Sequence record: PZ242158.1
From: a phage
Length of the DNA: 64,000 nt
Strand: one strand, 5' to 3'
Of this stretch, positions 1 to 14,072 are shown piece by piece. Position 1 is the stretch's first letter. Each line of letters starts with the position of its first letter. The translations under genes were made by a program, and so were the position numbers. The notes under the pieces are model-generated. The model saw only the letters and a list, made by a program, of their open reading frames with translations. It did no database searches and was not told the DNA's origin.

Positions 1-20
1 TACCTCCTTACAAGTTCCAA

Positions 21-473
21 GTGGTTGTGTTTGGTGGTGCAACGGAGGACATTTGCCAAGCGCTTTACCAAACTATCGCCTGTACGAACAGGACTTATGG
101 TAATATTTTCTACGATGTCACTACATCTGACGGTCAAACTGAAAGAATTTATTACTCCAAGGCAAATACCTACCGCTTGGATGTAAGAATTACCTACTCC
201 GGTGCTGCGCTTTCCACAACCGAAAAAGATGCCATTGTAGAGGCTCTTTTGCAGGTTGTTAACGGACTGGATGTTGCAGATACGTTATACAATATCCAAT
301 TGGTCGGTGCTGCATCCGCTGCTGTGTCAATAGGCAGATTTAATAGACTGGTAATTCAAGTTAAATCCGTAGGAGCTTCTGATGAAGCTTACACTACAAA
401 CGATATTGTTGCGAACATGACCGAGGTGTTTGACCTCGACGAAAGTAATATAACTTTCCAACAAACTATTTAA
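21..473 (+). CDS. hypothetical virion-module protein, probably 5'-truncated by window edge
   Basis: Frame is open from nt 3 to the GTG at 21 with no stop, so the gene likely starts upstream of the window; sits in the + strand structural operon; no motif recognised. Confidence 0.4.
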   Translation: MVVFGGATEDICQALYQTIACTNRTYGNIFYDVTTSDGQTERIYYSKANTYRLDVRITYSGAALSTTEKDAIVEALLQVVNGLDVADTLYNIQLVGAASAAVSIGRFNRLVIQVKSVGASDEAYTTNDIVANMTEVFDLDESNITFQQTI

Positions 474-484
474 GGCGGCGAGAT

Positions 485-1171
485 ATGGCAGAGATTAAGT
501 CGGATGTTAACCACATCCACACTCTGCCAGATTTTGTTCAGGGAGGTCTTGACTACCTACCTGGAGATTTTCTGGCTGAGAAGGTTAATTTAGTCACATT
601 CTTAACCGTATACCTTAAAAGGTTGGAGGATGTTGATAAGATGCTGGTAGGTTTGGCTGAAGGAAGATTGCTTAACAATGCCAGCGGAAGATACCTTGAC
701 GAAGTTGGTAATCAGCTTGGTATTCTTAGGAATGGACTTTCAGATGCTGATTTTCGTGCCACACTAATTATTCAGCAGGCTGCAGCATCAAGGGGCGGGA
801 CTCGCGAAGATGTCATCTCCACCTTGCGACAATTGTTCGGAAGAGACAATTTCGATACGTGGAAAGGAGACAACTTCAGGTTTGACATAAATATTAGAAA
901 AACTTGCTTTGACATATTGCAGTCTATCGATCAGATCTTAGATATGCTACCATTACCTTGTCATTTGCGTCTTACAGAATCGCAAGGGCAAGCTTTTGGT
1001 TTTGAAGGGGACTCTACAGCTCTTGGCTTCGGATCAGTGTGGGAAGAAAGCCAATTCGGAGTTGGTGGGCTGGCTACTTTGCTATATGTTCCTGACGTAA
1101 GACCTGATTGGGACACCACAACCATTTATTGTGAAAGTATTACAGTAAACGCAACTAGACAGGAGGGTTAA
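485..1171 (+). CDS. hypothetical virion-module protein
   Basis: 228-aa ORF, ATG 8 nt after GGCGGCGAG, stop overlaps next start (TAATG); no motif recognised. Confidence 0.45.
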   Translation: MAEIKSDVNHIHTLPDFVQGGLDYLPGDFLAEKVNLVTFLTVYLKRLEDVDKMLVGLAEGRLLNNASGRYLDEVGNQLGILRNGLSDADFRATLIIQQAAASRGGTREDVISTLRQLFGRDNFDTWKGDNFRFDINIRKTCFDILQSIDQILDMLPLPCHLRLTESQGQAFGFEGDSTALGFGSVWEESQFGVGGLATLLYVPDVRPDWDTTTIYCESITVNATRQEG

Positions 1172-3243
1172 TGGCAACAGCTGTTTTTAAACCTTACCGT
1201 GATTACTCTACAATGGCTGCACAGTTTCATTACCGAACAGTTCAGGATACTGCCGTTCCTGGTAGGGATTATAATCATGTTGAGGGCGATATAACTATCC
1301 CAGTTGGGGCAACAAGTATTGAGATCCCCGTGGAAATTGTTGACAAATTACCCAACAGGTTGCCAAGAAGCTTCTTTATGGAGTTTTCATCAAAATCCCA
1401 AGGGGTAATGATTGGAACACAAAGGGCGAAATGTACAATAGTTTCAGATGAGAATCTTGACAGGATATCTTGGGATACTGTTGAGGAGAGAATGTTTCAC
1501 CCAAGGTATTGGGTTACAACTACTCAGCAGACTGAAAGTACCTGTATTGTTGCAGATAACAACTGTTGTATTAACCGTTTAGTGTCAAGAACATATGGAG
1601 GTATGGCTGGGTGTATTTGGGAAACAGTTGACAAGTATGACCATTTCGGCATTGGGTTTGATGATCACTATGAGATGAGAAACACCAAGCTCTGGTTCAG
1701 AATGTCAATAACCAACGCCAGCAACTTCTCCACTCCTGAAAAGATGATTATGACTGTAGACCTTGTTGATGGCACAATCATCTATGTTCCTTTAGCTCAA
1801 TATGCTGTCAGCATCTCAGAGGATAAGAATGTTGCAGAAATTCATATTGATTTTGAGGACTGCGTCGGGATGGACCAGAACAACAACATGATGGGTGTTG
1901 ATCCTCGGCAGGTGAGAAGGATTTTAATACCACTCATGCCTAAAGACTGGGTAAGTAATAGCACAGACCCGAGAACGGAAAATGTAGAGTGTGAGTTGCG
2001 CCTAGATCTGCTTCAGCCAGACACAGGCTGGAAAATGATGCAACTTAACAATATTCAGGTTAAAGAGCACGACGTTGGGATCTGCACCGCATATGACGAT
2101 ATGTGGAACGTATCTCCTTTAAGGGTGTTGAACAATATCAAGCGTCTGGGCTATACCGGAACCATAAACCATTATGTTGGTATGAGTCATTATTATGACT
2201 ACACATGGTCAGGAACCCAATGGTCTATAAACAGAACAGGGGCGCTAAACGCTGCAGCTTATAAATGGCATGATGATTTTATGTACAATGCCAAACGACA
2301 TAACTTCGACGTTATGCAATCTGTAAGTTTTGAGCTTTTCAGCGATGCCTGCCCGTTGGAATGGACCCAAAGAGACTGGAACGATAACTACGCTAAAACA
2401 GGGTATACACCCTGTAGCTACCTCCTGTCTCCAACCATTGAAGAGGGTATGAATTTCCTTACTGCAGTATTTAAGAATTTTGCATCAGCCGCTATGAGAA
2501 ACAACCTGCCAGTGATTATGCAGGTTGGTGAACCGTGGTGGTGGTACAATACCGATACTCGTAGACCTTGTATTTATGATTACCCTACAAAACAGGCGTT
2601 TTATGATGAGACAGGCGAGTATGCATTAGATATTGGGACTATTGACGATCCTAAAACTGGCGGTGTTTACGATAAGTATGTAGCATTTTGTCGTGGTAAG
2701 CTTGGCGCTCGTATTGCGGCTATTTCAAAGGCAATAAAGGCACACGCTGCATCAGCTCAGATGACAGCTCTGCTGTTTTTCCCAACCATTATGGAAACCG
2801 AGCTTACGCAAAAGCTTAACCTTGCTGACCAATATAAAAAGGAAGCAGGTGCTCTTGATTTCTTCTGCACCGAGTGCTACGATTGGGTGATGCAGGGAGG
2901 TATTGAAAAGGCAAAAGAGTCTGTAAACATACCTATCGTTAAGTTAGGTTGGCAACCGTCTGAAATACAATACCTTGCAGGGTTCGTTCCTAGTAAAGAG
3001 CTTGCTCCGGTATATGGTTACGACCCAACCAGGAATTACCAAGAATTTTTATGGAGATGTATTTGCGGAAACATGGCAACTATAGAGTATAGATATCCTG
3101 AGGTAAAACAGTATGTGTGGGCATACCCGCAAGTAATGTCTGACAGCATCACTGTTACCGCTAGAGATTCTACCGTGCTTCATATGGGGCAGGTTGCTCT
3201 GAAAGGGTATGTAGAAGATGTTGTCCCGCCAGACTTCTCATAA
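1171..3243 (+). CDS. large virion structural protein (baseplate or tail associated, function unknown)
   Basis: 690-aa ORF translationally coupled to upstream gene, immediately 5' of the tail-fibre genes; no catalytic motif recognised. Confidence 0.45.
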   Translation: MATAVFKPYRDYSTMAAQFHYRTVQDTAVPGRDYNHVEGDITIPVGATSIEIPVEIVDKLPNRLPRSFFMEFSSKSQGVMIGTQRAKCTIVSDENLDRISWDTVEERMFHPRYWVTTTQQTESTCIVADNNCCINRLVSRTYGGMAGCIWETVDKYDHFGIGFDDHYEMRNTKLWFRMSITNASNFSTPEKMIMTVDLVDGTIIYVPLAQYAVSISEDKNVAEIHIDFEDCVGMDQNNNMMGVDPRQVRRILIPLMPKDWVSNSTDPRTENVECELRLDLLQPDTGWKMMQLNNIQVKEHDVGICTAYDDMWNVSPLRVLNNIKRLGYTGTINHYVGMSHYYDYTWSGTQWSINRTGALNAAAYKWHDDFMYNAKRHNFDVMQSVSFELFSDACPLEWTQRDWNDNYAKTGYTPCSYLLSPTIEEGMNFLTAVFKNFASAAMRNNLPVIMQVGEPWWWYNTDTRRPCIYDYPTKQAFYDETGEYALDIGTIDDPKTGGVYDKYVAFCRGKLGARIAAISKAIKAHAASAQMTALLFFPTIMETELTQKLNLADQYKKEAGALDFFCTECYDWVMQGGIEKAKESVNIPIVKLGWQPSEIQYLAGFVPSKELAPVYGYDPTRNYQEFLWRCICGNMATIEYRYPEVKQYVWAYPQVMSDSITVTARDSTVLHMGQVALKGYVEDVVPPDFS

Positions 3244-3255
3244 TCAGGAGATAAA

Positions 3256-4296
3256 ATGTCAAAACCTAGTTTTCCATTAGAGATTTGGGCAGAGGAGGAT
3301 CAGGTTCTGCCTAACACCCACAGACAGAACAGGCTACGCCCGATTGATGATTTGTGGAGAAAAGGTTGGGATCTTGGTCAAAAGCCCTCATGTGAAGAAC
3401 TTAACTATATTTTCAATATGCTCGGGACTTGGGCAAAATACATCGCTGACGAGCAGATTCCCGCTCAAGAAGGCCGTTATCTGGTACGTGATAATAACTT
3501 GAGTGATCTTTTGAACATTCCTGTTGCCCGTAGAAACCTTGGGATTATTACTAAGGAAGAGGCAGACGCCAGGTATGTAAAAGTTACAGGTGATACAATG
3601 ACAGGCCCATTGGGTTTGCAACGTATCAACTTTAAAGCTGCCGAGTCAGATAAGGCTTGGATAGAGACAACTATTGGCCCAGATAAGACAACTCTCGACT
3701 TTGGGTTAAGTGATAATACCGGGTCGTTTGATGATGGTGGTACATCTACAGTGGATGCGTTCCGTTGGAGATTCCAGCCAACTCAGCCGGATATTAATCC
3801 AGAGTTCACTTTGATGTACCTTAACGCGATCACGGCTAACCGTGCGCTGTTGAAAGTGGTAGGCAATGTTGAAGTTGTCGATAACATGAGGTGCAATAAC
3901 CTTACTATCAGCAATACAGCGACATTCACCAACTGTAATGTGGCTAGTCAGTTGACGGCTGGGTCAGTGTATGTTAATGGTGGTGCAAGTTGTGACAGTA
4001 TGGTTGTAAGAAGCCAGCACTGTGTTGTCGGTAACAGAAATGTGGTTCGCTCTGTGAACGGAGTGACGGCTAACGGTAACGGTGATGTAACGATCACTAT
4101 CCCGCAGACAGGTGTGCAAGACATCAGAATCGGTGCAAGACTTGTGGACGGAGTTTCTGAATCTCCAATCCGCAACGGCTACGTTGTCACAGGCTGGCAT
4201 TTCGGTGACAAAAAAGAGATGCGTGGTTCAACCTACTGGGCAGGACCTTTACAAAAACTTGTAAATGGTCAATGGATCACTGTTAATTATGCATAG
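3256..4296 (+). CDS. tail fibre protein, paralog A
   Basis: AGGAG SD; blocks LGLQRI, PDKTTLDF, FRWRFQP, LNAITANRA and C-terminus QKLVNGQWITVNYA shared with ORF 5308..6354; fibre-like Gly/Asn/Thr/Val-rich repeats. Confidence 0.6.
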   Translation: MSKPSFPLEIWAEEDQVLPNTHRQNRLRPIDDLWRKGWDLGQKPSCEELNYIFNMLGTWAKYIADEQIPAQEGRYLVRDNNLSDLLNIPVARRNLGIITKEEADARYVKVTGDTMTGPLGLQRINFKAAESDKAWIETTIGPDKTTLDFGLSDNTGSFDDGGTSTVDAFRWRFQPTQPDINPEFTLMYLNAITANRALLKVVGNVEVVDNMRCNNLTISNTATFTNCNVASQLTAGSVYVNGGASCDSMVVRSQHCVVGNRNVVRSVNGVTANGNGDVTITIPQTGVQDIRIGARLVDGVSESPIRNGYVVTGWHFGDKKEMRGSTYWAGPLQKLVNGQWITVNYA

Positions 4297-4310
4297 ATCG
4301 GAGGACTAGC

Positions 4311-4895
4311 ATGAAAATACTTCAAGAGTTTAAACTTTACCAACCGGGATCTGGCGAATACCGCACCAACAAGGAAACCAAGGAGCTGACCCCTCAAGAG
4401 GTTGAGGATTACACAGCATACACTGGGTATTTTTTACGTAATGATGATGGCGATTGGTATGTGCAGTCACGAACATTACGACAAGAAAATCCGGGGTGTA
4501 TCTTCCTACTTGTTGACGAGAAGGGAATTCTTAAGACATCTACAGAAGAACCTGATGCCTTATGGCCTGCTCCAGGTCTTCGTGTGGTTATCGCCAAAAA
4601 AGAAGAGGTACCAGAAAACATTATGCTTCACCACGACGCTTTGCGTTTAGTTGGTGATGAATTTGTCACAGACAATGAATTCTTTGTTCAACAGGCAGAG
4701 GGTGTCATAGAGACAGAACTTGCTTGGGCTACTGCTAGAATTGGTGCCTATCAAGACATGATTGACCTTGAATATGATCTTACTGATGACCAGAAACGTA
4801 ACATCAGAGATTTGAAAATGTACAGGGTAAAACTTCTTGAAATAGATACATCTAAAGCCCCTGACATTTTCTTCCCGGAGCGACCTACCCTCTAA
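4311..4895 (+). CDS. tail fibre assembly chaperone (Tfa-like)
   Basis: 194 aa directly after tail fibre A; C-terminus MYRVKLLEIDTSKAPDIFFPERP resembles the conserved C-terminal region of lambda/P2-type Tfa proteins (from memory). Confidence 0.5.
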   Translation: MKILQEFKLYQPGSGEYRTNKETKELTPQEVEDYTAYTGYFLRNDDGDWYVQSRTLRQENPGCIFLLVDEKGILKTSTEEPDALWPAPGLRVVIAKKEEVPENIMLHHDALRLVGDEFVTDNEFFVQQAEGVIETELAWATARIGAYQDMIDLEYDLTDDQKRNIRDLKMYRVKLLEIDTSKAPDIFFPERPTL

Positions 4896-4906
4896 GAGGA
4901 GGTGTT

Positions 4907-5221
4907 GTGGAGTTGGATTTGGCGGCATTGTACGGTATCTGCATGGGTACCGTTGTCCCGATCTGTGTATGGGCTTTCAACCAGTGGCACACCAAATGGA
5001 AAGGCATTTCCAAGAGGTTGGATGAACTGGAGAAAGACCTCATCTTAGTGAAAAACAGTATGGTTACAAAAGATAAACTTGATTCCGTTATCGAGACCCG
5101 GTTAAGTAAGCTAGAGGCCGATATTAACGACCTTAAGCAGGATGTCAGGACAGATGTCTCCGGTATCCGAGCTGATGTACAAAAGATTTTGCACATGCTC
5201 GTAGAGCATAGTAAAAGGTAA
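4907..5221 (+). CDS. membrane-anchored coiled-coil protein
   Basis: N-terminal hydrophobic segment LAALYGICMGTVVPICVWAF followed by a heptad-like charged region; lies between the two fibre paralogs. Confidence 0.35.
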   Translation: MELDLAALYGICMGTVVPICVWAFNQWHTKWKGISKRLDELEKDLILVKNSMVTKDKLDSVIETRLSKLEADINDLKQDVRTDVSGIRADVQKILHMLVEHSKR

Positions 5222-5307
5222 ACAAAGGTCAGAACGGAAAGGACTCCGTTCTTGCATTTTGTTCCCTAAAGTGTTAAAATAGTCCTAAGGAATTTTCTCA
5301 GGAGAAC

Positions 5308-6354
5308 GTGATGACTAAACCAGTTATCCCTCTTGATATTTGGGCCAATCAGGATGTTGTGCTTGAAAATACGGGAGAGTTGAATAAGTCTCAACCAAAA
5401 AAAGAAGAGAGATTGAAAGGTTGGGATATGACACAAAGAGTGGCATGTGAAGTTGTTAACTTTGAACTTCACATGCTTTCTGCGTGGTTAAAGCATTTAA
5501 CAGAAGATGTTGTCCCGGGATGGGATAATAGATTCTTAAGGGTCACTAATAATCTAGCAGACGTTCCAGACAAAGCTGCTGCACGTCAAGTTCTCAATGT
5601 ATACTCGCCTGAAGAAATGGACGATCTGTATGTTGACAAGTCTGGAGACATAATGACTCAGACTCAAACTTTAGGTCTTCAAAGAATCGAGTTTGCATCT
5701 GCGTCAACAGACAATGCGGCAATATATACCACCATAACTCCAGACAAGACGACGATGGATTTCTGGATTATGGACAACATCGGTGGTGCTGACGGCACAG
5801 ACCTTGATGATCCTTCTCACCAAATAGACGGGTTCCGTTGGAGATTTCAACCTTCTGGTGGGCAGCCTGTGTTTTCGGCTATGAAGCTCAATGCTATAAC
5901 TGCCAACCGTGCAAGACTGGCTATCCAAGGGAATCTTGAATGCAACGATGCAAAAAGTTCCTCTGCAAATGCCAATGCGGTCACGATACCAAGAGCCACT
6001 GTTAATGGACAACAATCCTGCGGAAGCGCTCAAATAGGTGGAAGAGTTGATTGTAACGATGAAACCGTCAGGGGCCAATATGCAACAGTTGGTGGAAGAA
6101 ACGTGGTCCGCAGGGTAAATGGTAACGGCGCAGACAGTAGTGGTAACCTTACTATTCCTATGCCTAGCAGAGGGGTTGATGATGTAAGGATAGCAAACCG
6201 TTTTAAAACCACCTACAGAGAGTCAAGAGTCTACCCTGGACATGTGATGTGCTCTGGTAACTACGCTTATAAACACCCTTATCAAGGTGATTACTGGACA
6301 GGTGCTATCCAAAAACTTGTAAATGGTCAATGGATCACTATATCTTATGCTTAA
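5308..6354 (+). CDS. tail fibre protein, paralog B
   Basis: 348 aa; same conserved blocks as 3256..4296 and near-identical C-terminus QKLVNGQWITISYA. Confidence 0.6.
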   Translation: MMTKPVIPLDIWANQDVVLENTGELNKSQPKKEERLKGWDMTQRVACEVVNFELHMLSAWLKHLTEDVVPGWDNRFLRVTNNLADVPDKAAARQVLNVYSPEEMDDLYVDKSGDIMTQTQTLGLQRIEFASASTDNAAIYTTITPDKTTMDFWIMDNIGGADGTDLDDPSHQIDGFRWRFQPSGGQPVFSAMKLNAITANRARLAIQGNLECNDAKSSSANANAVTIPRATVNGQQSCGSAQIGGRVDCNDETVRGQYATVGGRNVVRRVNGNGADSSGNLTIPMPSRGVDDVRIANRFKTTYRESRVYPGHVMCSGNYAYKHPYQGDYWTGAIQKLVNGQWITISYA

Positions 6355-6365
6355 AAAGAGGGTAA

Positions 6366-6632
6366 ATGAAACTAACTCAGTTTTTATGGGGACTGGTTGC
6401 GGCATCTGATGACCCTACGAAAGTGTCCCAATCTAAGCTATGGTCGAACATAGGCATGGCGGTGATGACTGGGGTGTTTATTCATATGGGGTATAATGAT
6501 ACGCTTCCTGAATGGTATGCGTGGATATACGCGCCTTCAGTAGCTTGCCCCCAGCTTATTAGCAAATTCATCTCGCTCCGGTGGGGTTGCCAGCACCCTG
6601 ACCACGTTAAAAACGAAGAGCAAAAAGCTTAA
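6366..6632 (+). CDS. small membrane protein
   Basis: 88 aa with hydrophobic segment WSNIGMAVMTGVFIHMGY; SD GAGGG upstream. Confidence 0.35.
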   Translation: MKLTQFLWGLVAASDDPTKVSQSKLWSNIGMAVMTGVFIHMGYNDTLPEWYAWIYAPSVACPQLISKFISLRWGCQHPDHVKNEEQKA

Positions 6633-6641
6633 GGAGAAATC

Positions 6642-8387
6642 ATGGCGCAAGACATGACAAGCTTTGAGCAGGCGGTAGATCAAGTAATTGTTGATTCTGA
6701 ACGTTTGCACCTGATTGTCAACGGTAACGCTGTGGATGAAGTTGTCGTAGAGGATGGGACCACCATCCCTACGGTACGAAAAGCCATGCTTGACACCCTT
6801 TATTTTAAAACGCCACCGATCCCTTGGGCGTATGGTGCATCCACAACAGTTTTTAACCAGCTGTACGAGTTTAAAGGGGACACAGGCCCTCAGTGGTGGT
6901 ACGCTCCCGCAGCATCAAAATCTAACCCGGTTAGAATGCCAGCAGATCCTTCACAATCTCCAAACTGGAGATTATATACCGATTCTGCAGTAATGGCAAA
7001 ATACTACGCAAAACTTAACAGTCCGAGGTTCGAAGGTGACCCGCGAGTACCTACGCCTCCAATGGACGACAAATCCGAGTCTATAGCAAACACAGAGTTT
7101 GTTGTTGACTATGTGGATAGCATATTTGAAGCCATGGAGGGAATGAAAGTTACTGTAGGGTCTTTGGTGGTAAAAGGTCTTACAGAACTTGCTAACACTA
7201 TAGTTGGTGGCACACTCACCTTACATGGGCCTGTTAATGGAGCAGATTCTACTGCACGCTTCAGGAACCTAATCCTCACGGCAAATACTTCTACACTTAC
7301 TTTTGCGTGGAGTGATCCTAAGCATGCAGACTGGAGAAGCACAGAGCTGCAACCTCATGAAGTGTCCACCCACAGGGTTATAGCTGACACTATAACTTCT
7401 GGGAAACCAGTGGCTAATAATAACGATGTGCATTTTGATGGTCTAGGTAATAACTTTTTTGACTACGTGTACATTCGTGGTAATGCCATGAAGGCAGCAA
7501 CCGAACCGACATTGCAGGTAGATGGAACCACCAGGGTTAAGAACCTTGAGGTGACAGGCACTGTTACAGGGATAACCTACTCTGTCGATGGCACCATGAT
7601 TTACCCTAGCTATATTGAAAGCACGGGGGACGCATTAATAAATGGTGATTTAGAAGTTGGCGGATCTGTAGTTATTCGAGGTACAGCCTCTATCCAAAAC
7701 ATAGCTCTGAATACCCTAAGAGTCAATGAGCGTGCAACTTTTGAAGGGGAAGGGCTTACAGCCAACAAAGGTGTAATTACCGAGCTGACAACCACTACTT
7801 TAACTGCAACAACTGCAAACTCTGAAAACTGCAACGTTACCAGAAACTTGCAGGTAAATGGAGATGTTAGTTTAAACGCAGCAGGGACGGGCACCACCTA
7901 CCTTCACAACCTTGAAATATCCGGCACAGTGACTGGGTGGCTGCCAGACTTCTCTAATGTCAACTTTGTTTGTAATGGCATTAACTCCAGTGGCAAGATA
8001 ACCACCTCTCAAGAAATTGAGGCGGGTAAAACCATCACTGCCCCTACTTTCCACGCAGGAAAGGTAGATTTTGATTTAGAGGAGGTTGACGCGTCCAGTG
8101 GGACATGGACACCTAACGGGCAGGCCAGTATGTATGTTGTCCACGCGAAAGGGGATTTTACAATAGGACAGTGGCCTGGGACATCAGCGGAAGATAAACC
8201 TTATCCATTCACTGCAGTTATCTATGTCATTCAGGATGCTGTAGGTCACAACGTGACTTTGCACGATAAGTATGCTATCCTGTCGGCAACACCTGTTATT
8301 AACAACAAGGCTAACAGTGTTACCTTGCTGCAATTAACGTATTGTGGTGTTGGTGATATTGTAGACGTAGTAATTGCACAACGTTAA
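6642..8387 (+). CDS. tail fibre or tailspike-like protein
   Basis: 581 aa, Thr/Gly/Val/Asn-rich repetitive beta-type composition; SD AAGGAG; in fibre cluster. Confidence 0.5.
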   Translation: MAQDMTSFEQAVDQVIVDSERLHLIVNGNAVDEVVVEDGTTIPTVRKAMLDTLYFKTPPIPWAYGASTTVFNQLYEFKGDTGPQWWYAPAASKSNPVRMPADPSQSPNWRLYTDSAVMAKYYAKLNSPRFEGDPRVPTPPMDDKSESIANTEFVVDYVDSIFEAMEGMKVTVGSLVVKGLTELANTIVGGTLTLHGPVNGADSTARFRNLILTANTSTLTFAWSDPKHADWRSTELQPHEVSTHRVIADTITSGKPVANNNDVHFDGLGNNFFDYVYIRGNAMKAATEPTLQVDGTTRVKNLEVTGTVTGITYSVDGTMIYPSYIESTGDALINGDLEVGGSVVIRGTASIQNIALNTLRVNERATFEGEGLTANKGVITELTTTTLTATTANSENCNVTRNLQVNGDVSLNAAGTGTTYLHNLEISGTVTGWLPDFSNVNFVCNGINSSGKITTSQEIEAGKTITAPTFHAGKVDFDLEEVDASSGTWTPNGQASMYVVHAKGDFTIGQWPGTSAEDKPYPFTAVIYVIQDAVGHNVTLHDKYAILSATPVINNKANSVTLLQLTYCGVGDIVDVVIAQR

Positions 8388-8435
8388 TATATCTAACCGC
8401 TCCTGACGGGGCGGTTTTCTTATCTGGAGAACACA

Positions 8436-11400
8436 ATGCTTCCAATCCCTTTGCTAAAACTTGGTCGTCATTTCCTCGATAAGAGGGGTGGAATTAAGGA
8501 ACTTGCTGTTCTGTCATACCCAATAGACAACAGTGATGGTACAAGCAACACAGTATCCTATGTAAATAGCTTAGCTATACTTTTTGATGATGGTCAGCTT
8601 AATATTACTGGCTATAATAGGTTCGGAGAGTGTCGGACTGGAGATCTTGATACAATAAACTATCCTAATGAGGCAGCTTGGAACGTAGACCATGTTTGGA
8701 GAGCTGACCGTGCATTTGTAATCCGCACATTCGATAATAAATTTTTCTATATTGGTTGCACAGCTGGTCTTATCGGATCGGAGGCAGCAGGTGGAAACGA
8801 TGTTTGTGTCAGAGAGTGGACACCTTTGCCGGAACAGATCGTAACAGGGTTGCATTTGGACACCCATCCTGAGAGACTTGTTGAAGTAATGGGTGGCGTA
8901 AACAATACAGTGTGGGTAATTGCTGCACCAGAGGATGATGGTATGCTTCACCTGTACGGCTCTGGCAATAATACTTACGGCTCTCTTCATGTTGACAAAA
9001 GTCAACACGCTACTCCAGTTAAGATCGGTGAAACATCTGAAAGTCCAGAGACAGGTCCTTGGAAAAATCCAAGAATTAATTGTGAAGTTCATGACAACTC
9101 GGTTATTTTTGGTGGTCCTAACGGATTCTGGATTGCAGGTTACGATTTCTTAAGAAATAACAGCAAAAACACACTAGTTTATCCAGCCGAGCATGTGACT
9201 CTTGACCAGTTTAAAGGCATCCCGGTGGGCGAGACATGGAAAGGATTCATGTGTGGACCTAATGGTGCAATTATAGCCACAGAAAGGATGCACAAACCTG
9301 ATGACCAACAGCTTGTTAATGTGTTTTATGGTCAGGATGTTTGGGGTGACGACACGTGGAGAAGCCTTAACATCACCTATACCCATGAAGTAATTATGGC
9401 TCGCGGGTACGGGACTAGTGGAATTTTCTTCAATAATGGTACAAAACAGTACCGTGGTTTCTCCAGAAACCTGTGTAACGATATTGGTGCTCAATCTGCT
9501 AATAATAGTCCTAGGGCCAATTTTATTCATTACAGAGCGCTGGCAACAGCTAAGTTTGTTGAACAGACAGAGCCAGTAAGCTGGACAGAAAGCGTTTATT
9601 TCCAGGGTATCCACAGAGAAGGTTTCTTAGGGACCTTTACTGTTGTTAATGGCAAACTTTGGTGGTCAGGCATCCCAAGGGGAAGTTTTGCAGGCTCTAA
9701 TAACCTGTTTGGCGGCAGACTTAATAGTCAGGGGTTCACAGAGGTTCCTGAGAATTGGTATAAAAATGTCCCAGTAGACAGTTGGGGCGTTGATGATATT
9801 TTCGACGTTAATGGTGTTAGTAGTGTTAGCAATATCTACATTGGTGACACGGTCAAGATGAAATTGAAGCCTCAGCCAGAGGGGGCTACGTTCATTATTG
9901 ACAAGATTGAGTTGGTAAATGCTGCAGGTACGGTTGTTACAGATGCAAATTACCAATTCTCCACCAACTGGAACCACGGTGGGGCCAACGAAGTTGTTGT
10001 TACCCAGTATAACAGAAATGTTAACAGACGTGGCCTGTACTCTGTAAAAATAACCTATCATGACAAGCATGGCACAGGCAGAACCCATACGACAAGAACT
10101 TTGAACTGGAACACCATAGTTCCTGCGTATCCGTCCAACGGCAAGTGGCATACTGTCGGTAGAAACAAACAGTTCCATGTCAACGATACTGTATACTTCG
10201 GGCTTAACGCAGCTCAACCTGTTGTAGAAGGCGATACATCGTATATGGTACGACTCCATAGAATGGATGCCGGGTCTGTAACCTACGATGTGACTCAAGA
10301 GATCTACGATCAGAGACGTACCACGTATGACAATGTTGTGAAAACACAAGCCTTGTGGGAGTTCAACCCTAACGGCAGAGGCGGTAAAATGTTGCAGGTC
10401 AACGAGCAAAACGGAACATCGTTGACTGTCCATGAACATCCAGATCCTTGGCCTGATCCTGGAAAACCTAACTCTGGGGCTCGTACACTGAAAATTGTCA
10501 GCCATGATGCAGGATATTTCGGAATACGCTGGGAAGCTACAGTAAGATATGTCGACGGGACAACAAACAACATAGGGATTACACTTGGCGGCACTAGTGA
10601 AGATAACTCGCTGAAAATTGCCTACACGCCCAGAGGTATCTCTATTGATAATATGGATGTTGTTCGCAATGGTTACGGCGATGTGAATGTCAAAGTTACT
10701 CTTGGCGAACATCTTGGTGGGGAAAGGATCATCATGTATGCCTTTGATCATGATCCGCGCACCAATGGGACTTATGCAAATCAGGCATGGAGTTACCTGA
10801 TAAATGCACCTGAGCCGAATACTAAAGAGTTCTACTATGGTATGAAGCGAGATGTGTGCAAGAAAACAGGAACACATGACTGGATTGCTATCTGCGTTAA
10901 AGATGAGCGCACAGCTTGGGATGAGCCTGTTAACAGATGGTTCATAGGTATTCCTACCAGAAGTGATAAGTATGTCGCAGAATATATTGTATGCATGGGC
11001 GGTACCAACCTGAACATGTGTTGGAACGAAGATGTAAACAAATACTCTGATTATGACTATATGAGGGATTACTCTTGCAATCTGTGGTTTAACCAAACTA
11101 CAGGTTACCCTCCGCGTCAGGCAAGGGTAAATCCTGCAATCTTTACAGATACTCAGGTTTTCTTGACAAAACAGGCAAACGAGGTTCAGACCTTCAAGAA
11201 TAACTATGACCCTAACAAGTGGTTCTATAATTGTTACGGGGCATACTTTTGGGGGCCTGCTGAACTGCCTGACAGCGGTTCTTGCTTCGAGGCTGCAACC
11301 TACGGCAGCGACTATATCATGGGACAGGTCAAGAAGTACAAGATGATCCCAGGGCCTGAAACTTTAGGTAACGCTGTTGACCCATACATAAATTTCGCAG

Positions 11401-14072
11401 CTTTGCATGCGAATATGGATGGTGCAAGGTATCCGTTCGACGTTCCAGTTGCCAATGGGTACAGACGTGTCGTGATGATTATTAAATGCGATCTGATCGG
11501 AAAGCAAGTTCTTGCAGAAAACGGAACATCCACACATCCTTTTGAAGTTGCTCTGCACTACCAGTTTGCAGACTCACCATATGCGGGAGATAAAAGAATC
11601 TCCGACACAGACTCTAAGCGCTGTAAGAAAGTTTTACTTGGAGCCGGGTGGTGGTGGTACGAGTTTGATTTGACAGATAAGTTCACAGATGATACCAAAA
11701 CTCTCACAGGTATCCGTCTGGACCTTGGTGAAAACATGCACAAAGCTGTTTGTGATGGCACCTACGGTGATCCTACAGTATACTTGAAGTATGTCTCTCT
11801 TGAGCATCCAGAGGATGCCGTAATCGGTCCTAAACTGAAATTGTTCGGCTCATGGATTGCCAAGGATAGGGTAGGAATGGGTAAGAAAGTGAGAGGATTC
11901 CTGATAGACGCAGGGACAGAGGACATGCTGGTTAATGCAGTGTGGCCTACGCTAGAAGGCACCGCCTACAACAATGCAGCCAGGTCTATAAATTGGTTCA
12001 ACATTCACAGGGCTATGTGGACCACTAACTGCTACTTGTGGAGAGAGCTTAACGATCAGGCCTTTGGCTTTAGTGACGGCAGAAGGATGGCGATCATTTG
12101 CTGGACAACATTGCAAAGATGTTATGACCATGACTACGAGATTGGCGGTAGAGCATGGAAAGATATCAGAGATAGGGTTATATACAATTTTGCAGACGAC
12201 AACGGTGGTGGAGCATATAACTTTGGCACAAGCAGACTCATCCATTTGAACGGATCCTCAGCCTACAAGAAAGAAGGTTACTCCGGGTCCATGATCGAGT
12301 GGGGTCTGGTGAAAGATGCTCGTGTATTGATGGGCCAGCAACTTGCTGCTGCAATAGGTCCTAGTGCAGTGCAGTCTGCTAAACCAGCGTGGTTCGATAT
12401 CCCATTATGGTCCTCTGGAACACCAGGAGCTGCTGCAATCAACCCTACCACTGGGGATCTAGAAATCTCCTGGGAAGACCTGAAGCAGGTCGGTGGTTGG
12501 GACAAAACAGGGTATCAGGTTCAATGGTGGAGGGCTGACGGATCTTTAGCCGCTGATGAGTTTGTTAAGGACAATTTCTACACCATGTCCTCTGCAAAAG
12601 CACAGCAATTGTTCGGACAGGCTACTCCGTCAACAATCACCATGTCTATGTGCTGTAAAGACAACAGAACTGGAGCTCTGGGGCCAAGGGTTGCTAAAGT
12701 TTTCTCAGGTATTAAATGGAATCTACCTGTCCAAAGTATTTCATGGAAGCAAATAGGTGATAACAAGCTGCTGGTTACCCCTGCCTGTCAGTTCAACGCA
12801 ACTCTTAACGTTGATCCTGCTGTTGCGGCAAACTCAGCTAAAGCTTCTGACTTCTCTGTGTCTAACACTGCTATGGCAGATGTGAGGAAGATTGACACGC
12901 TGAACGCCAGAATTACCTGTAAAAACACTTATGGCACATTCCAAATCATCAACAACTTCACAGATGCTGATTCTAAGGTAGTGAGGACAGCAAGCCAGAC
13001 TCTGAGTTTAGGAACTCTGGCCTATGCGGCCCTGATCACCGAGCAGTCGGCAACACTCCAAGGAGGTGGTGTAGGCAAGTCCATTGCAACACCTGTGTGG
13101 AAGCCAAATGAGTGGGTTGTGTTTGATTTGACTGTGGACTTCTCCAGCGATAATAACTGGACATGGGTAAGGAATTGTTTGTCACAATTGATGGGAGGTC
13201 CAAGCTCCGTTAGTGATAGTCACGACTCTACTGACCCGAGTGTGTTCCAGGTAGGTAAAACTCACCCAGAGACTGGAGAAACGTTGCCTGACAGGAAGTA
13301 TGCGTTGGTTTGCATCTCTTACGGGAAGGCAGATGTCACCTTCTCAGGGACACACACTTATAACGGAACCTACAACTTCTCAAGGAAGTATAGTCTCAAA
13401 GCAGGGAACATTGTAGACGAGGTTGGTGTGCTGTATAATCCAGGTAACGGCATAGGGATTGTGGGTGGTAAACTGCAGATGCAGGAACCTTCTATTACCC
13501 CTTCCAACGTATCCGGTATTAGAAAGACTTGGGAAAGTAGTAATACCAACATTGCAACAGTGGATGCTGCCACAGGGCTGGTAACATTTAAAGCTACTGG
13601 GAATGTCACCATAAAGTTTGTAGTTACTGATGATGCAGGGCGCAAAACGTCTTCAACATCTTTTACTGTCAAACAGATGGCACCACAGTGGAGAATGTGG
13701 ATAGGTACAGCAACAAACGGGGCATACCCTAATCCGGCAGGTACTTCTGGTATGAAGACTTTCTCTACAAGCAAACCGATGGAGTACGGCAGCGGTCCTA
13801 AGGTAGGGCAGATGGTGTACTTTGGTGCGTATATTCCTGAAATTATAGGGCTTCCTAGAAGTCAGCTTCAGTTGCTGTTTGGGGCTGGTGTTGACGATCT
13901 TGCCACTTTCGGGTATAGCGACAACATCGAGGCTGCAAGGAGTTCAGGATGGGTAGGGTTCAGAATGGAGTCCGGAAAGGAAGGCAGGATTCTAGGGACA
14001 GCCTCTATAGGTGTTATGTTCCCTGGTGACCAGCAGTATCGTCTAGAAGCCTACGCAACCTTTTCTCGTTAA
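8436..14072 (+). CDS. giant fibre/adhesin-like virion protein with bacterial Ig-like (BIG2) domain
   Basis: 1878-aa ORF; near C-terminus SGIRKTWESSNTNIATVDAATGLVTFKATGNVTIKFVVTDDAGRKTSSTSFTV matches the BIG2 Ig-like fold pattern; last gene of structural operon. Confidence 0.6.
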   Translation: MLPIPLLKLGRHFLDKRGGIKELAVLSYPIDNSDGTSNTVSYVNSLAILFDDGQLNITGYNRFGECRTGDLDTINYPNEAAWNVDHVWRADRAFVIRTFDNKFFYIGCTAGLIGSEAAGGNDVCVREWTPLPEQIVTGLHLDTHPERLVEVMGGVNNTVWVIAAPEDDGMLHLYGSGNNTYGSLHVDKSQHATPVKIGETSESPETGPWKNPRINCEVHDNSVIFGGPNGFWIAGYDFLRNNSKNTLVYPAEHVTLDQFKGIPVGETWKGFMCGPNGAIIATERMHKPDDQQLVNVFYGQDVWGDDTWRSLNITYTHEVIMARGYGTSGIFFNNGTKQYRGFSRNLCNDIGAQSANNSPRANFIHYRALATAKFVEQTEPVSWTESVYFQGIHREGFLGTFTVVNGKLWWSGIPRGSFAGSNNLFGGRLNSQGFTEVPENWYKNVPVDSWGVDDIFDVNGVSSVSNIYIGDTVKMKLKPQPEGATFIIDKIELVNAAGTVVTDANYQFSTNWNHGGANEVVVTQYNRNVNRRGLYSVKITYHDKHGTGRTHTTRTLNWNTIVPAYPSNGKWHTVGRNKQFHVNDTVYFGLNAAQPVVEGDTSYMVRLHRMDAGSVTYDVTQEIYDQRRTTYDNVVKTQALWEFNPNGRGGKMLQVNEQNGTSLTVHEHPDPWPDPGKPNSGARTLKIVSHDAGYFGIRWEATVRYVDGTTNNIGITLGGTSEDNSLKIAYTPRGISIDNMDVVRNGYGDVNVKVTLGEHLGGERIIMYAFDHDPRTNGTYANQAWSYLINAPEPNTKEFYYGMKRDVCKKTGTHDWIAICVKDERTAWDEPVNRWFIGIPTRSDKYVAEYIVCMGGTNLNMCWNEDVNKYSDYDYMRDYSCNLWFNQTTGYPPRQARVNPAIFTDTQVFLTKQANEVQTFKNNYDPNKWFYNCYGAYFWGPAELPDSGSCFEAATYGSDYIMGQVKKYKMIPGPETLGNAVDPYINFAALHANMDGARYPFDVPVANGYRRVVMIIKCDLIGKQVLAENGTSTHPFEVALHYQFADSPYAGDKRISDTDSKRCKKVLLGAGWWWYEFDLTDKFTDDTKTLTGIRLDLGENMHKAVCDGTYGDPTVYLKYVSLEHPEDAVIGPKLKLFGSWIAKDRVGMGKKVRGFLIDAGTEDMLVNAVWPTLEGTAYNNAARSINWFNIHRAMWTTNCYLWRELNDQAFGFSDGRRMAIICWTTLQRCYDHDYEIGGRAWKDIRDRVIYNFADDNGGGAYNFGTSRLIHLNGSSAYKKEGYSGSMIEWGLVKDARVLMGQQLAAAIGPSAVQSAKPAWFDIPLWSSGTPGAAAINPTTGDLEISWEDLKQVGGWDKTGYQVQWWRADGSLAADEFVKDNFYTMSSAKAQQLFGQATPSTITMSMCCKDNRTGALGPRVAKVFSGIKWNLPVQSISWKQIGDNKLLVTPACQFNATLNVDPAVAANSAKASDFSVSNTAMADVRKIDTLNARITCKNTYGTFQIINNFTDADSKVVRTASQTLSLGTLAYAALITEQSATLQGGGVGKSIATPVWKPNEWVVFDLTVDFSSDNNWTWVRNCLSQLMGGPSSVSDSHDSTDPSVFQVGKTHPETGETLPDRKYALVCISYGKADVTFSGTHTYNGTYNFSRKYSLKAGNIVDEVGVLYNPGNGIGIVGGKLQMQEPSITPSNVSGIRKTWESSNTNIATVDAATGLVTFKATGNVTIKFVVTDDAGRKTSSTSFTVKQMAPQWRMWIGTATNGAYPNPAGTSGMKTFSTSKPMEYGSGPKVGQMVYFGAYIPEIIGLPRSQLQLLFGAGVDDLATFGYSDNIEAARSSGWVGFRMESGKEGRILGTASIGVMFPGDQQYRLEAYATFSR

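Follow-up and report, generated by a model that had tools for sequence, protein, structure and literature searches.

Two short tail fiber genes in an rV5-like genome

The 64,000-nucleotide stretch of phage DNA analyzed here (sequence record PZ242158.1; the window) carries two paralogous genes, A and B, that very probably encode the known Mu-S-type short tail fibers of Vequintavirus phages, corresponding to gp33 (A) and gp30 (B) of phage rV5. All genes described at this locus lie on the plus strand. Paralog A (positions 3256 to 4296) encodes a protein of 346 amino acids (aa), and paralog B (5311 to 6354) encodes one of 347 aa. Both match PHROG 4465 (tail fiber) over their full length, with residues 1 to 346 of A (E = 2e-171) and residues 1 to 347 of B (E = 4e-166) each aligned to profile positions 1 to 342. 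Between the two genes lie a 194-aa Tfa assembly chaperone (4311 to 4895; rV5 gp32 ortholog) and a 104-aa protein with one N-terminal transmembrane (TM) segment (4907 to 5221; rV5 gp31), and the gene downstream of B encodes an 88-aa putative membrane protein (6366 to 6632; rV5 gp29). The rV5 gene numbers were assigned through the notes in the PVP-SE1 and phi92 records.

An initial annotation, made from the letters and open reading frames (ORFs) of the window, had proposed two fiber paralogs at this locus, and the ORF list, the PHROG assignments, and a full-length BLASTP alignment of A (3256 to 4293) with B (43% identity, 58% positives, E = 7e-94) bear this out. The shared motifs that it listed (LGLQRI, PDKTT(L/M)DF, FRWRFQP, LNAITANRA, and QKLVNGQWIT) are all found in both proteins. 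Its description of conserved termini around divergent cores fits the sliding-window profile, in which identity is 60% over the first 20 aa and 75% over the last 20 aa, with minima of 15 to 25% at residues ~205 to 245 and ~295 to 325. At the DNA level, the longest match between the copies, and the sole long one, is at the 3' end (62 nucleotides [nt] at 84% identity). The initial annotation was also right that a Tfa gene follows only the first fiber, as the 194-aa Caudo_TAP ORF stands after A and none stands after B, and that a membrane protein lies between the paralogs, where the 104-aa ORF has a single N-terminal hydrophobic segment. Two details require adjustment. The size given for A (346 aa) holds, but the 348 aa given for B implies a GTG start at 5308; because an AGGAG at 5300 to 5304 stands 6 nt before the ATG at 5311, this ATG is most likely the start, hence 347 aa, as in the database records and rV5. 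Likewise, the C-terminal QKLVNGQWIT is present in both proteins, but two variable residues (VN or IS), rather than one, precede YA. Overall, the initial observation is confirmed with these minor corrections, and its interpretation is partly supported.

Positions 3000 to 7000 are 100% identical to Escherichia phage AlexBoehm (Bas56, Vequintavirus; genes bas56_0034 to bas56_0038), whose record labels the fiber genes "short tail fiber protein" (twice) and "tail fiber chaperone," and the fiber locus is ~99% identical to rV5. Because the rest of the window is only ~96 to 97% identical to its best matches (96.4% for 1 to 13691 and at best 96.9%, to JohannBauhin, for 7000 to 30000), the source genome is another rV5-like Vequintavirus, not exactly AlexBoehm. 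The short-fiber locus may be markedly more conserved than its flanks, or it may have been exchanged recently.

The rV5 genes gp33, gp32, and gp30 and the BASEL paralogs with their chaperone are the same genes as those described here, matching in order, size (346 and 347 aa), and paralog identity (42 to 43%). In rV5, gp30 (347 aa) and gp33 are 42.3% identical and gp12-like by HHpred (1PDI), both are virion proteins according to the main-text proteomics statement, the Tfa gp32 also appears in the list of virion proteins that were detected, and recognition of "two chemotypes of LPS" (lipopolysaccharide) was suggested for the two fibers (Kropinski et al. 2013, PMC3606486). The proteomics answers the concern raised in the initial annotation that one copy might be absent from the virion. 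The paralogs and chaperone of the BASEL Vequintavirus phages were subsequently described as related to the single short fiber of phi92-like phages and to Mu GpS/GpU, without considerable allelic variation (Maffei et al. 2021, S5D Fig, PMC8594841). Because the gene pair and the idea of dual specificity have been in the literature since 2013, the finding as initially stated adds nothing new. The incremental additions are the asymmetric divergence of the B joint, purifying selection on both tips, and evidence that the paralogs have undergone gene conversion and exchanged tips.

Fiber architecture and comparison with known systems

Sequence homology divides A into a wedge joint (residues ~1 to 110), a shaft (~111 to 285), and a Mu-S-like tip (~286 to 346). 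The N-terminal joint of both paralogs matches the short fiber of phage phiTE (PDB 9cuy) by phmmer (A residues 1 to 108, E = 1.4e-19; B residues 1 to 83, E = 1.3e-9), and in that fiber the globular joint that binds wedge 1 spans residues 3 to 92 (PMC11972413). The tip of A (residues 286 to 343) matches Mu S residues 440 to 501 (5yvq; E = 2e-6), the family profile matches Mu S residues 149 to 246 with a probability of 97.6%, and the B tip aligns with the A tip class. The family synteny of two wedge genes, fiber, and Tfa is found at A, with the gene of a 690-aa lateral fiber intercalated, whereas B stands at a derived position and lacks a Tfa of its own; directly downstream of A is a Caudo_TAP gene, and directly downstream of B is the 88-aa putative membrane protein instead.

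The chaperone, separated from A by a 15-nt gap, is the sole Tfa in the locus and was identified by Pfam Caudo_TAP (PF02413; residues 121 to 192, E = 8.5e-12) and PHROG 136 (E = 2.4e-36); it aligns with Mu U and its orthologs. In Tfa proteins, a variable N-domain binds the distal part of the fiber and a conserved C-domain trimerizes, and the chaperone stays on the Mu virion (PMC9608196). The Vequintavirus Tfa has an N-terminal insertion of ~12 to 17 residues (about residues 13 to 30) in the fiber-binding domain, which is not present in the aligned Tfa of single-fiber PVP-SE1, BIS47, and phi92, nor in Mu U. This insertion could be related to serving two client fibers.

Phage phi92 carries a single-copy ortholog, gp147 (fiber III), with gp148 as its Tfa; the joint and tip class are homologous, with 47% identity over those parts. 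Six Mu-like gp147 trimers sit below the C-terminal domain of the wedge protein gp145 and have been proposed to make adsorption irreversible and set off contraction (PMC13450770). In contrast to the window, phi92 has one copy, a shaft that tblastn does not align (38% of the query covered), and no second fiber between the genes of the small membrane proteins. The phiTE short tail fiber (9cuy, 9mjn) shares the N-terminal wedge-1 joint of ~100 residues and a short C-terminal QK-VNG-W-T motif, but it is a single-copy fiber of 554 aa with a long coiled coil and immunoglobulin-like distal domains, and it belongs to a flagellotropic phage.

The Mu S/U and S'/U' pairs and P2 H/G also consist of a Mu-S-like fiber with a Caudo_TAP chaperone directly downstream, and Mu resembles the source genome in having two alternative fiber tips per genome. 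However, Gin inversion in Mu expresses one tip at a time, each with its own Tfa, whereas the genes described here are full length and co-oriented, with both proteins in the virion according to the rV5 data, one Tfa that would be shared, and a history of duplication and gene conversion rather than a DNA switch. A search for inverted repeats longer than 23 nt on either side of the two plus-strand fiber genes was negative, and no Gin/Cin-type invertase is annotated in the 28-kb neighborhood of the identical AlexBoehm locus. Given this co-orientation and the lack of an invertase and of such repeats, the pair is not a Mu/P1-type invertible switch. The short fiber gp12 of T4 is a functional analogue, in that it is a short trimeric fiber that binds the LPS core and makes adsorption irreversible. 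As no gp12 chain was found among PDB matches at E values up to 1 and no Pfam match was obtained, this relation is one of functional analogy only. T4 gp12 also differs in using gp57A instead of Tfa as its chaperone, and the fibers of the relatives of A and B point downward and are predeployed, not folded under the baseplate.

Duplication history and asymmetric divergence

In sister genera (PVP-SE1 and BIS47), the gene order is wedge, wedge, fiber, Tfa, 104-aa membrane protein, 157-aa protein with four TM segments, ~88-aa membrane protein, and next fiber. Because the sister genera share this order, A keeps the ancestral gene position, and it keeps the ancestral N-terminal baseplate joint as well; B occupies the place of the 157-aa gene. 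Identity to the single-copy orthologs is 45 to 47% for A versus 38 to 40% for B. Trees were built for separate regions of a 32-sequence alignment. A and B are sisters in the shaft tree, which argues for a lineage-specific duplication; in the N-terminus tree, B falls on a long branch outside all orthologs, and in the tip tree both fall within the PVP-SE1/phi92 tip class.

The divergence of B is concentrated in its N-terminal part. Nine columns that do not vary across the A group and 24 single-copy orthologs are changed in B-type sequences (P19E, I30K/E, W34R, G41S/T, K43R, Y51F, Y62H, N94A/V, and G117Q), eight of them within residues 1 to 117, whereas A-type sequences have only three changes at otherwise invariant columns, all conservative. 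Across the family, the stretch between the VQDIR and QKLVNGxW motifs behaves as a swappable module, because shafts that are nearly identical carry tips of at least three types. A recent horizontal donor of the B-type tip was considered and rejected, as tblastn with the B tip (60 aa) gives no match above 45% identity outside Vequintavirus.

Conservation of both copies

Both paralogs are present in every rV5-like record listed, as two matching places in each, and are at least 98% (A) and at least 95.7% (B) identical; ~116 to 117 records exceed 90% identity among the listed matches. The comparison with related phages that the initial annotation had suggested as a check for cassette swapping thus reveals none within the genus among the listed genomes. 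In one record, that of vB_Eco_Alma (L020, OV101294.1; 1584 to 6716), A, Tfa, and a 581-aa fiber gene are each split into fragments. We considered this as a natural loss of A, but the many split genes in that assembly indicate an artefact of sequencing or assembly frameshifts.

Two further groups of metagenomic or IMG/VR contigs were compared with the rV5-like phages (clade 1), namely, clade 2 (L005 to L007) and clade 3 (L009, L013, L015, L019, and L014 with L018). Clade 2, at ~75% nucleotide identity, has an identical gene order. In the comparison with clade 2, synonymous divergence (dS) is saturated, and A and B have nonsynonymous divergences (dN) of 0.10 and 0.16, respectively; neighboring genes with measurable dS have dN/dS ratios of 0.05 to 0.11. 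Amino acid identities to clade 2 for A and B, respectively, are 0.89 and 0.91 in the tips, 0.87 and 0.80 in the N-terminal joints, and 0.85 and 0.72 in the shafts, and the last 14 residues are 100% identical. Both copies are therefore under strong purifying selection, with the tips among their most conserved parts. The combination of low dN, saturated dS, and conserved tips indicates that two different tip sequences are actively maintained and that neither copy is decaying.

Clade 3, a more divergent Vequintavirus-like group that is not among the phage-collection records listed, has an A protein that is ~73 to 77% identical, a 204-aa Tfa, and a 354-aa B homolog, and an ORF of 104 to 117 aa replaces the 88-aa gene.

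Proposed gene conversion and exchange of tips between A and B

The segments encoding QKLVNGQWIT in A (4252 to 4281, plus strand) and in B (6310 to 6339, plus strand) are identical over 30 nt within the 62-nt match, and we propose that they form a gene-conversion tract; the next longest identical run between A and B is 15 nt. The clade 2 paralogs are also identical to each other over this tract, and relative to the rV5-like sequences the same synonymous sites differ in both paralogs (CTT/CTG, GTA/GTC, and CAA/CAG). Nucleotide identity of the tract is not forced by the peptide, because clade 3 encodes the same peptide in both paralogs with only 3 of 10 codons shared. Under phage codon usage, the chance probability of 10 of 10 identical codons is 1.3e-4 in the source genome, and that of at least 9 of 10 is 2.2e-3 in clade 2. 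Gene conversion of the 3' tract between the paralogs is the simplest explanation.

Clade 3 points to exchange on a larger scale. Its protein at the B position has a B-type N-terminus (0.55 identity to B and 0.37 to A) and an A-type tip core, which is 0.76 identical to A of the same genome and only 0.25 identical to B of the window. The last 20 aa of the two clade 3 paralogs are 100% identical, and both end in VQTL. Because the tip identity between A and B within a clade 3 genome (0.76) exceeds that between orthologous A tips (0.56), a whole-tip exchange between the paralogs in this lineage is suggested. The suggestion in the initial annotation that the pair offers a substrate for module exchange is consistent with the 30-nt tract, with the clade that carries an A-type tip on B, and with the family-wide tip swaps.

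Functional interpretation of the fiber pair

Our reading of the locus leads to a mechanistic scheme that draws largely on relatives. Each paralog would form a homotrimer whose N-terminal joint of ~100 residues plugs into the wedge-1 protein, as shown for phiTE and phi92 gp147, followed by a beta-rich shaft and a C-terminal Mu-S-like receptor-binding tip of ~60 residues. The Tfa encoded after A would nucleate trimer folding at the distal tip, serve both paralogs, and probably stay on the virion. During infection, the N4-gp65-like fiber would bind the NGR glycan first, and the short fibers would then bind the LPS core irreversibly and trigger contraction. A would be the ancestral-type copy, and B would be a duplicate that originated in the Vequintavirus lineage and was placed between two genes for small membrane proteins. 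Its N-terminal joint and, in rV5-like clades, its tip may then have been re-tooled, while strong purifying selection would keep both copies and gene conversion would still homogenize their 3' ends.

Several observations weigh against this interpretation or parts of it. A PDB search gave no direct significant match of the B tip to Mu S. AlphaFold2 monomer models were poor, with mean predicted local distance difference test (pLDDT) scores of 62 (A) and 58 (B), and Foldseek returned no PDB match at E values of ≤0.001; because these fibers are obligate trimers, monomer models are uninformative, so that sequence homology and the trimer models published for relatives are the basis of the three-part architecture. 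The 30-nt tract on which the case for gene conversion is built offers few informative synonymous sites. It is by inference only that a single Tfa is taken to serve both fibers, by way of the tip class and invariant C-terminus that they have in common. Cryo-electron microscopy of Bas49 and Bas54 at 7 to 9.5 Å resolved one short-fiber density (class TC1, with a Mu-like C-terminus) among three proximal fibers, and this density could not be assigned to A or B (PMC12143355). In the literature, we found no paper that separates the roles of gp30 and gp33 or that ties either one to a receptor, a position on the baseplate, or dependence on a chaperone.

Published genetics identify NGR as the primary receptor and GlcI of the LPS outer core as the terminal receptor, with GlcI dependence common to Vequintavirus (two copies; 18 phages tested) and Justusliebigvirus (one copy; 8 phages), and the PhiWec Vequintavirus phages need waaF, waaG, and WaaY-dependent heptose phosphorylation. 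Against this background, a difference in receptor specificity between A and B is plausible but unproven. The initial annotation read the two proteins as receptor-binding proteins of different specificity that would broaden the host range. Such specificities could be directed, for example, at different LPS-core chemotypes or epitopes, and we regard this possibility as tentative. The tip cores (residues 286 to 326) of A and B are only 30% identical, yet each is 88 to 90% conserved between clades with saturated synonymous sites, and the tip region is a swapped, specificity-type module across the family. The joint need of the PhiWec phages for the waaG-dependent outer core and for WaaY-phosphorylated heptose could reflect two epitopes, and recognition of two chemotypes is what was proposed for rV5 (PMC3606486). 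However, all of the two-copy Vequintavirus and single-copy Justusliebigvirus phages tested share the same terminal receptor, and single LPS-core knockouts (waaG or waaF) abolish infection, which argues that the two copies do not provide independent entry routes on K-12. Moreover, the broader lysis host range belongs to the one-copy phi92-like phages (PMC8594841), neither tip shows allelic variation within the genus in the records listed, and the clade 3 paralogs carry nearly the same tip (76% core identity and 100% over the last 20 aa). If the lasting difference lies in the N-terminal joint and shaft rather than in the tip, B could dock elsewhere or otherwise on the baseplate, or alternate with A around the six wedges, giving two mechanically distinct LPS-binding sets. 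The radical changes in B (P19E, I30K/E, W34R, G117Q, and others) at columns invariant in A and the 24 single-copy orthologs speak for such positional subfunctionalization; all three clades retain the B-type N-terminus, including the one with an A-type tip, and the homologous segment is the wedge-1 joint in phiTE (PMC11972413). This division of labor by position is nevertheless somewhat unlikely, in that the Bas49 and Bas54 maps report only one short-fiber density (PMC12143355) and the wedge-1 protein has the same length as in single-fiber genera, so that there is no obvious extra docking domain. A more elaborate proposal, which is speculative and which we hold to be unlikely, is that B is a re-tooled second short-fiber class rather than just a second receptor specificity, with a remodeled joint that docks at another site or in another geometry than the canonical wedge-1 socket of A and of all single-copy relatives, and with one shared Tfa recognizing the gene-conversion-homogenized C-terminus of both classes. 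If true, the tips could be kept identical (as in clade 3) or diverge (as in rV5-like phages) without change to the assembly machinery.

The equal length, same domain order, identical C-terminal nucleation segment, and one shared chaperone of A and B would also allow the two proteins to co-assemble as heterotrimeric fibers, but this is very improbable. In the Mu S and P2 H class, phage fibers are homotrimers; A and B share only 15 to 25% identity in parts of the shaft and tip; and a terminator-like hairpin separates the genes. The single-copy relatives likewise assemble homotrimers (PMC13450770, PMC11972413). Least credible of all is that one copy is a redundant or decaying duplicate without a role. 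Single-copy relatives do infect the same laboratory hosts; yet the examined Vequintavirus genomes and two divergent clades carry both copies intact, with low dN, saturated dS, and tips that are 89 to 91% conserved, and the sole apparently broken copy (vB_Eco_Alma) stands in an assembly with many split genes. These conservation data effectively refute decay, and both proteins were detected in rV5 virions (PMC3606486).

The rV5-like phages rank among the most commonly isolated myoviruses of Escherichia coli, and therapy cocktails and O157 typing make use of them. Whether their short fibers differ in epitope, in baseplate position, or in both, once known, would guide host-range engineering. The shared chaperone and conserved C-terminus suggest that tips could be swapped between VQDIR and QKLVNGQW with the assembly machinery untouched.

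Neighboring genes and intergenic hairpin

Upstream of A, the window begins with the 3' end of the baseplate wedge-1 gene (21 to 473), a homolog of phi92 gp145, rV5 gp36, and PVP-SE1 gp48 according to the AlexBoehm, PVP-SE1, and BIS47 annotations. The C-terminal domain of the wedge-1 protein is the short-fiber attachment site in phi92 (PMC13450770) and phiTE (PMC11972413). A second wedge subunit (485 to 1171), homologous to phi92 gp146 and rV5 gp35 by synteny and record annotations, is followed by the gene of the 690-aa lateral fiber protein (1171 to 3243), which has an N4 gp65-like (NCTSP) TIM-barrel domain (Pfam PF23845, E = 4e-80; PF23844, E = 1e-12) and is described in the AlexBoehm record as having glycosidase and deacetylase domains. 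This gene, placed between the wedge genes and A, is not at that position in PVP-SE1 and BIS47. The N4 gp65-like receptor-binding protein has been assigned to the NGR glycan (bioRxiv 10.64898/2026.04.02.716166), and from the shared family and the deacetylase-domain note the 690-aa protein appears to be this published NGR-binding, primary-receptor fiber type.

The 104-aa protein between the paralogs (PHROG 5345, of unknown function) has its hydrophobic segment at residues ~3 to 24 (mean Kyte-Doolittle hydropathy of 1.9). Its Pfam matches are weak and below threshold, a pattern that we read as typical of coiled coils, and it probably contains one. Homologs are found by tblastn in 224 phage records, at the syntenic position beside fiber and chaperone genes across Vequintavirinae. 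The 88-aa protein (PHROG 1322, E = 2.7e-32) is labeled as a putative membrane protein through the notes for PVP-SE1 gp42 and phi92 gp144; its hydropathy is only weak, and its gene is conserved downstream of the fiber module in the sister genera and phi92 (gp144). Small membrane-protein genes (104 aa, ~88 aa, and the 157-aa four-TM gene of the sister genera; L002, 4501 to 5570, and L003, 4501 to 5574) are thus kept inside the tail fiber module across Vequintavirinae and phi92. The holin of rV5 was never firmly identified, with gp129 being only a guess, and these proteins are candidates for roles in lysis or superinfection exclusion.

The sole sizeable intergenic gap of the fiber cluster (5222 to 5310) contains a terminator-like hairpin with a T-tract on the plus strand (5231 to 5252; 8-bp stem, four GC pairs, tail TGCATTTTGT). 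Its fold has an energy of -16 kcal/mol (z = -2.9) in the source genome. In clade 2, a 6-bp stem is kept through three compensatory changes. The hairpin is possibly an attenuator between the A-Tfa-104-aa unit and B, and we consider this a moderate lead. It could not be upheld as a conserved terminator, since the clade 2 fold is weak (z = -1.1). We also weighed whether a conserved TAAAATAG motif that follows the hairpin could be a late promoter for B, but discarded the idea, as the motif is not enriched in the window (18 matches versus 18.7 expected). No sigma-70-like promoter was found on the plus strand.

Minor observations on ORFs and database records

A 476-aa ORF on the minus strand (9666 to 11096) lies wholly inside an 1,878-aa fiber gene (8436 to 14072) and is almost certainly spurious. 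Among the database records, 16 to 21 unannotated GenBank entries labeled "Campylobacter phage" (MG0656xx, host C. jejuni) are ~99% identical to rV5-like or phi92-like phages of E. coli, and a record labeled "Listeria phage" carries a Rosemountvirus-type fiber; these records are probably mislabeled or contaminant phages.

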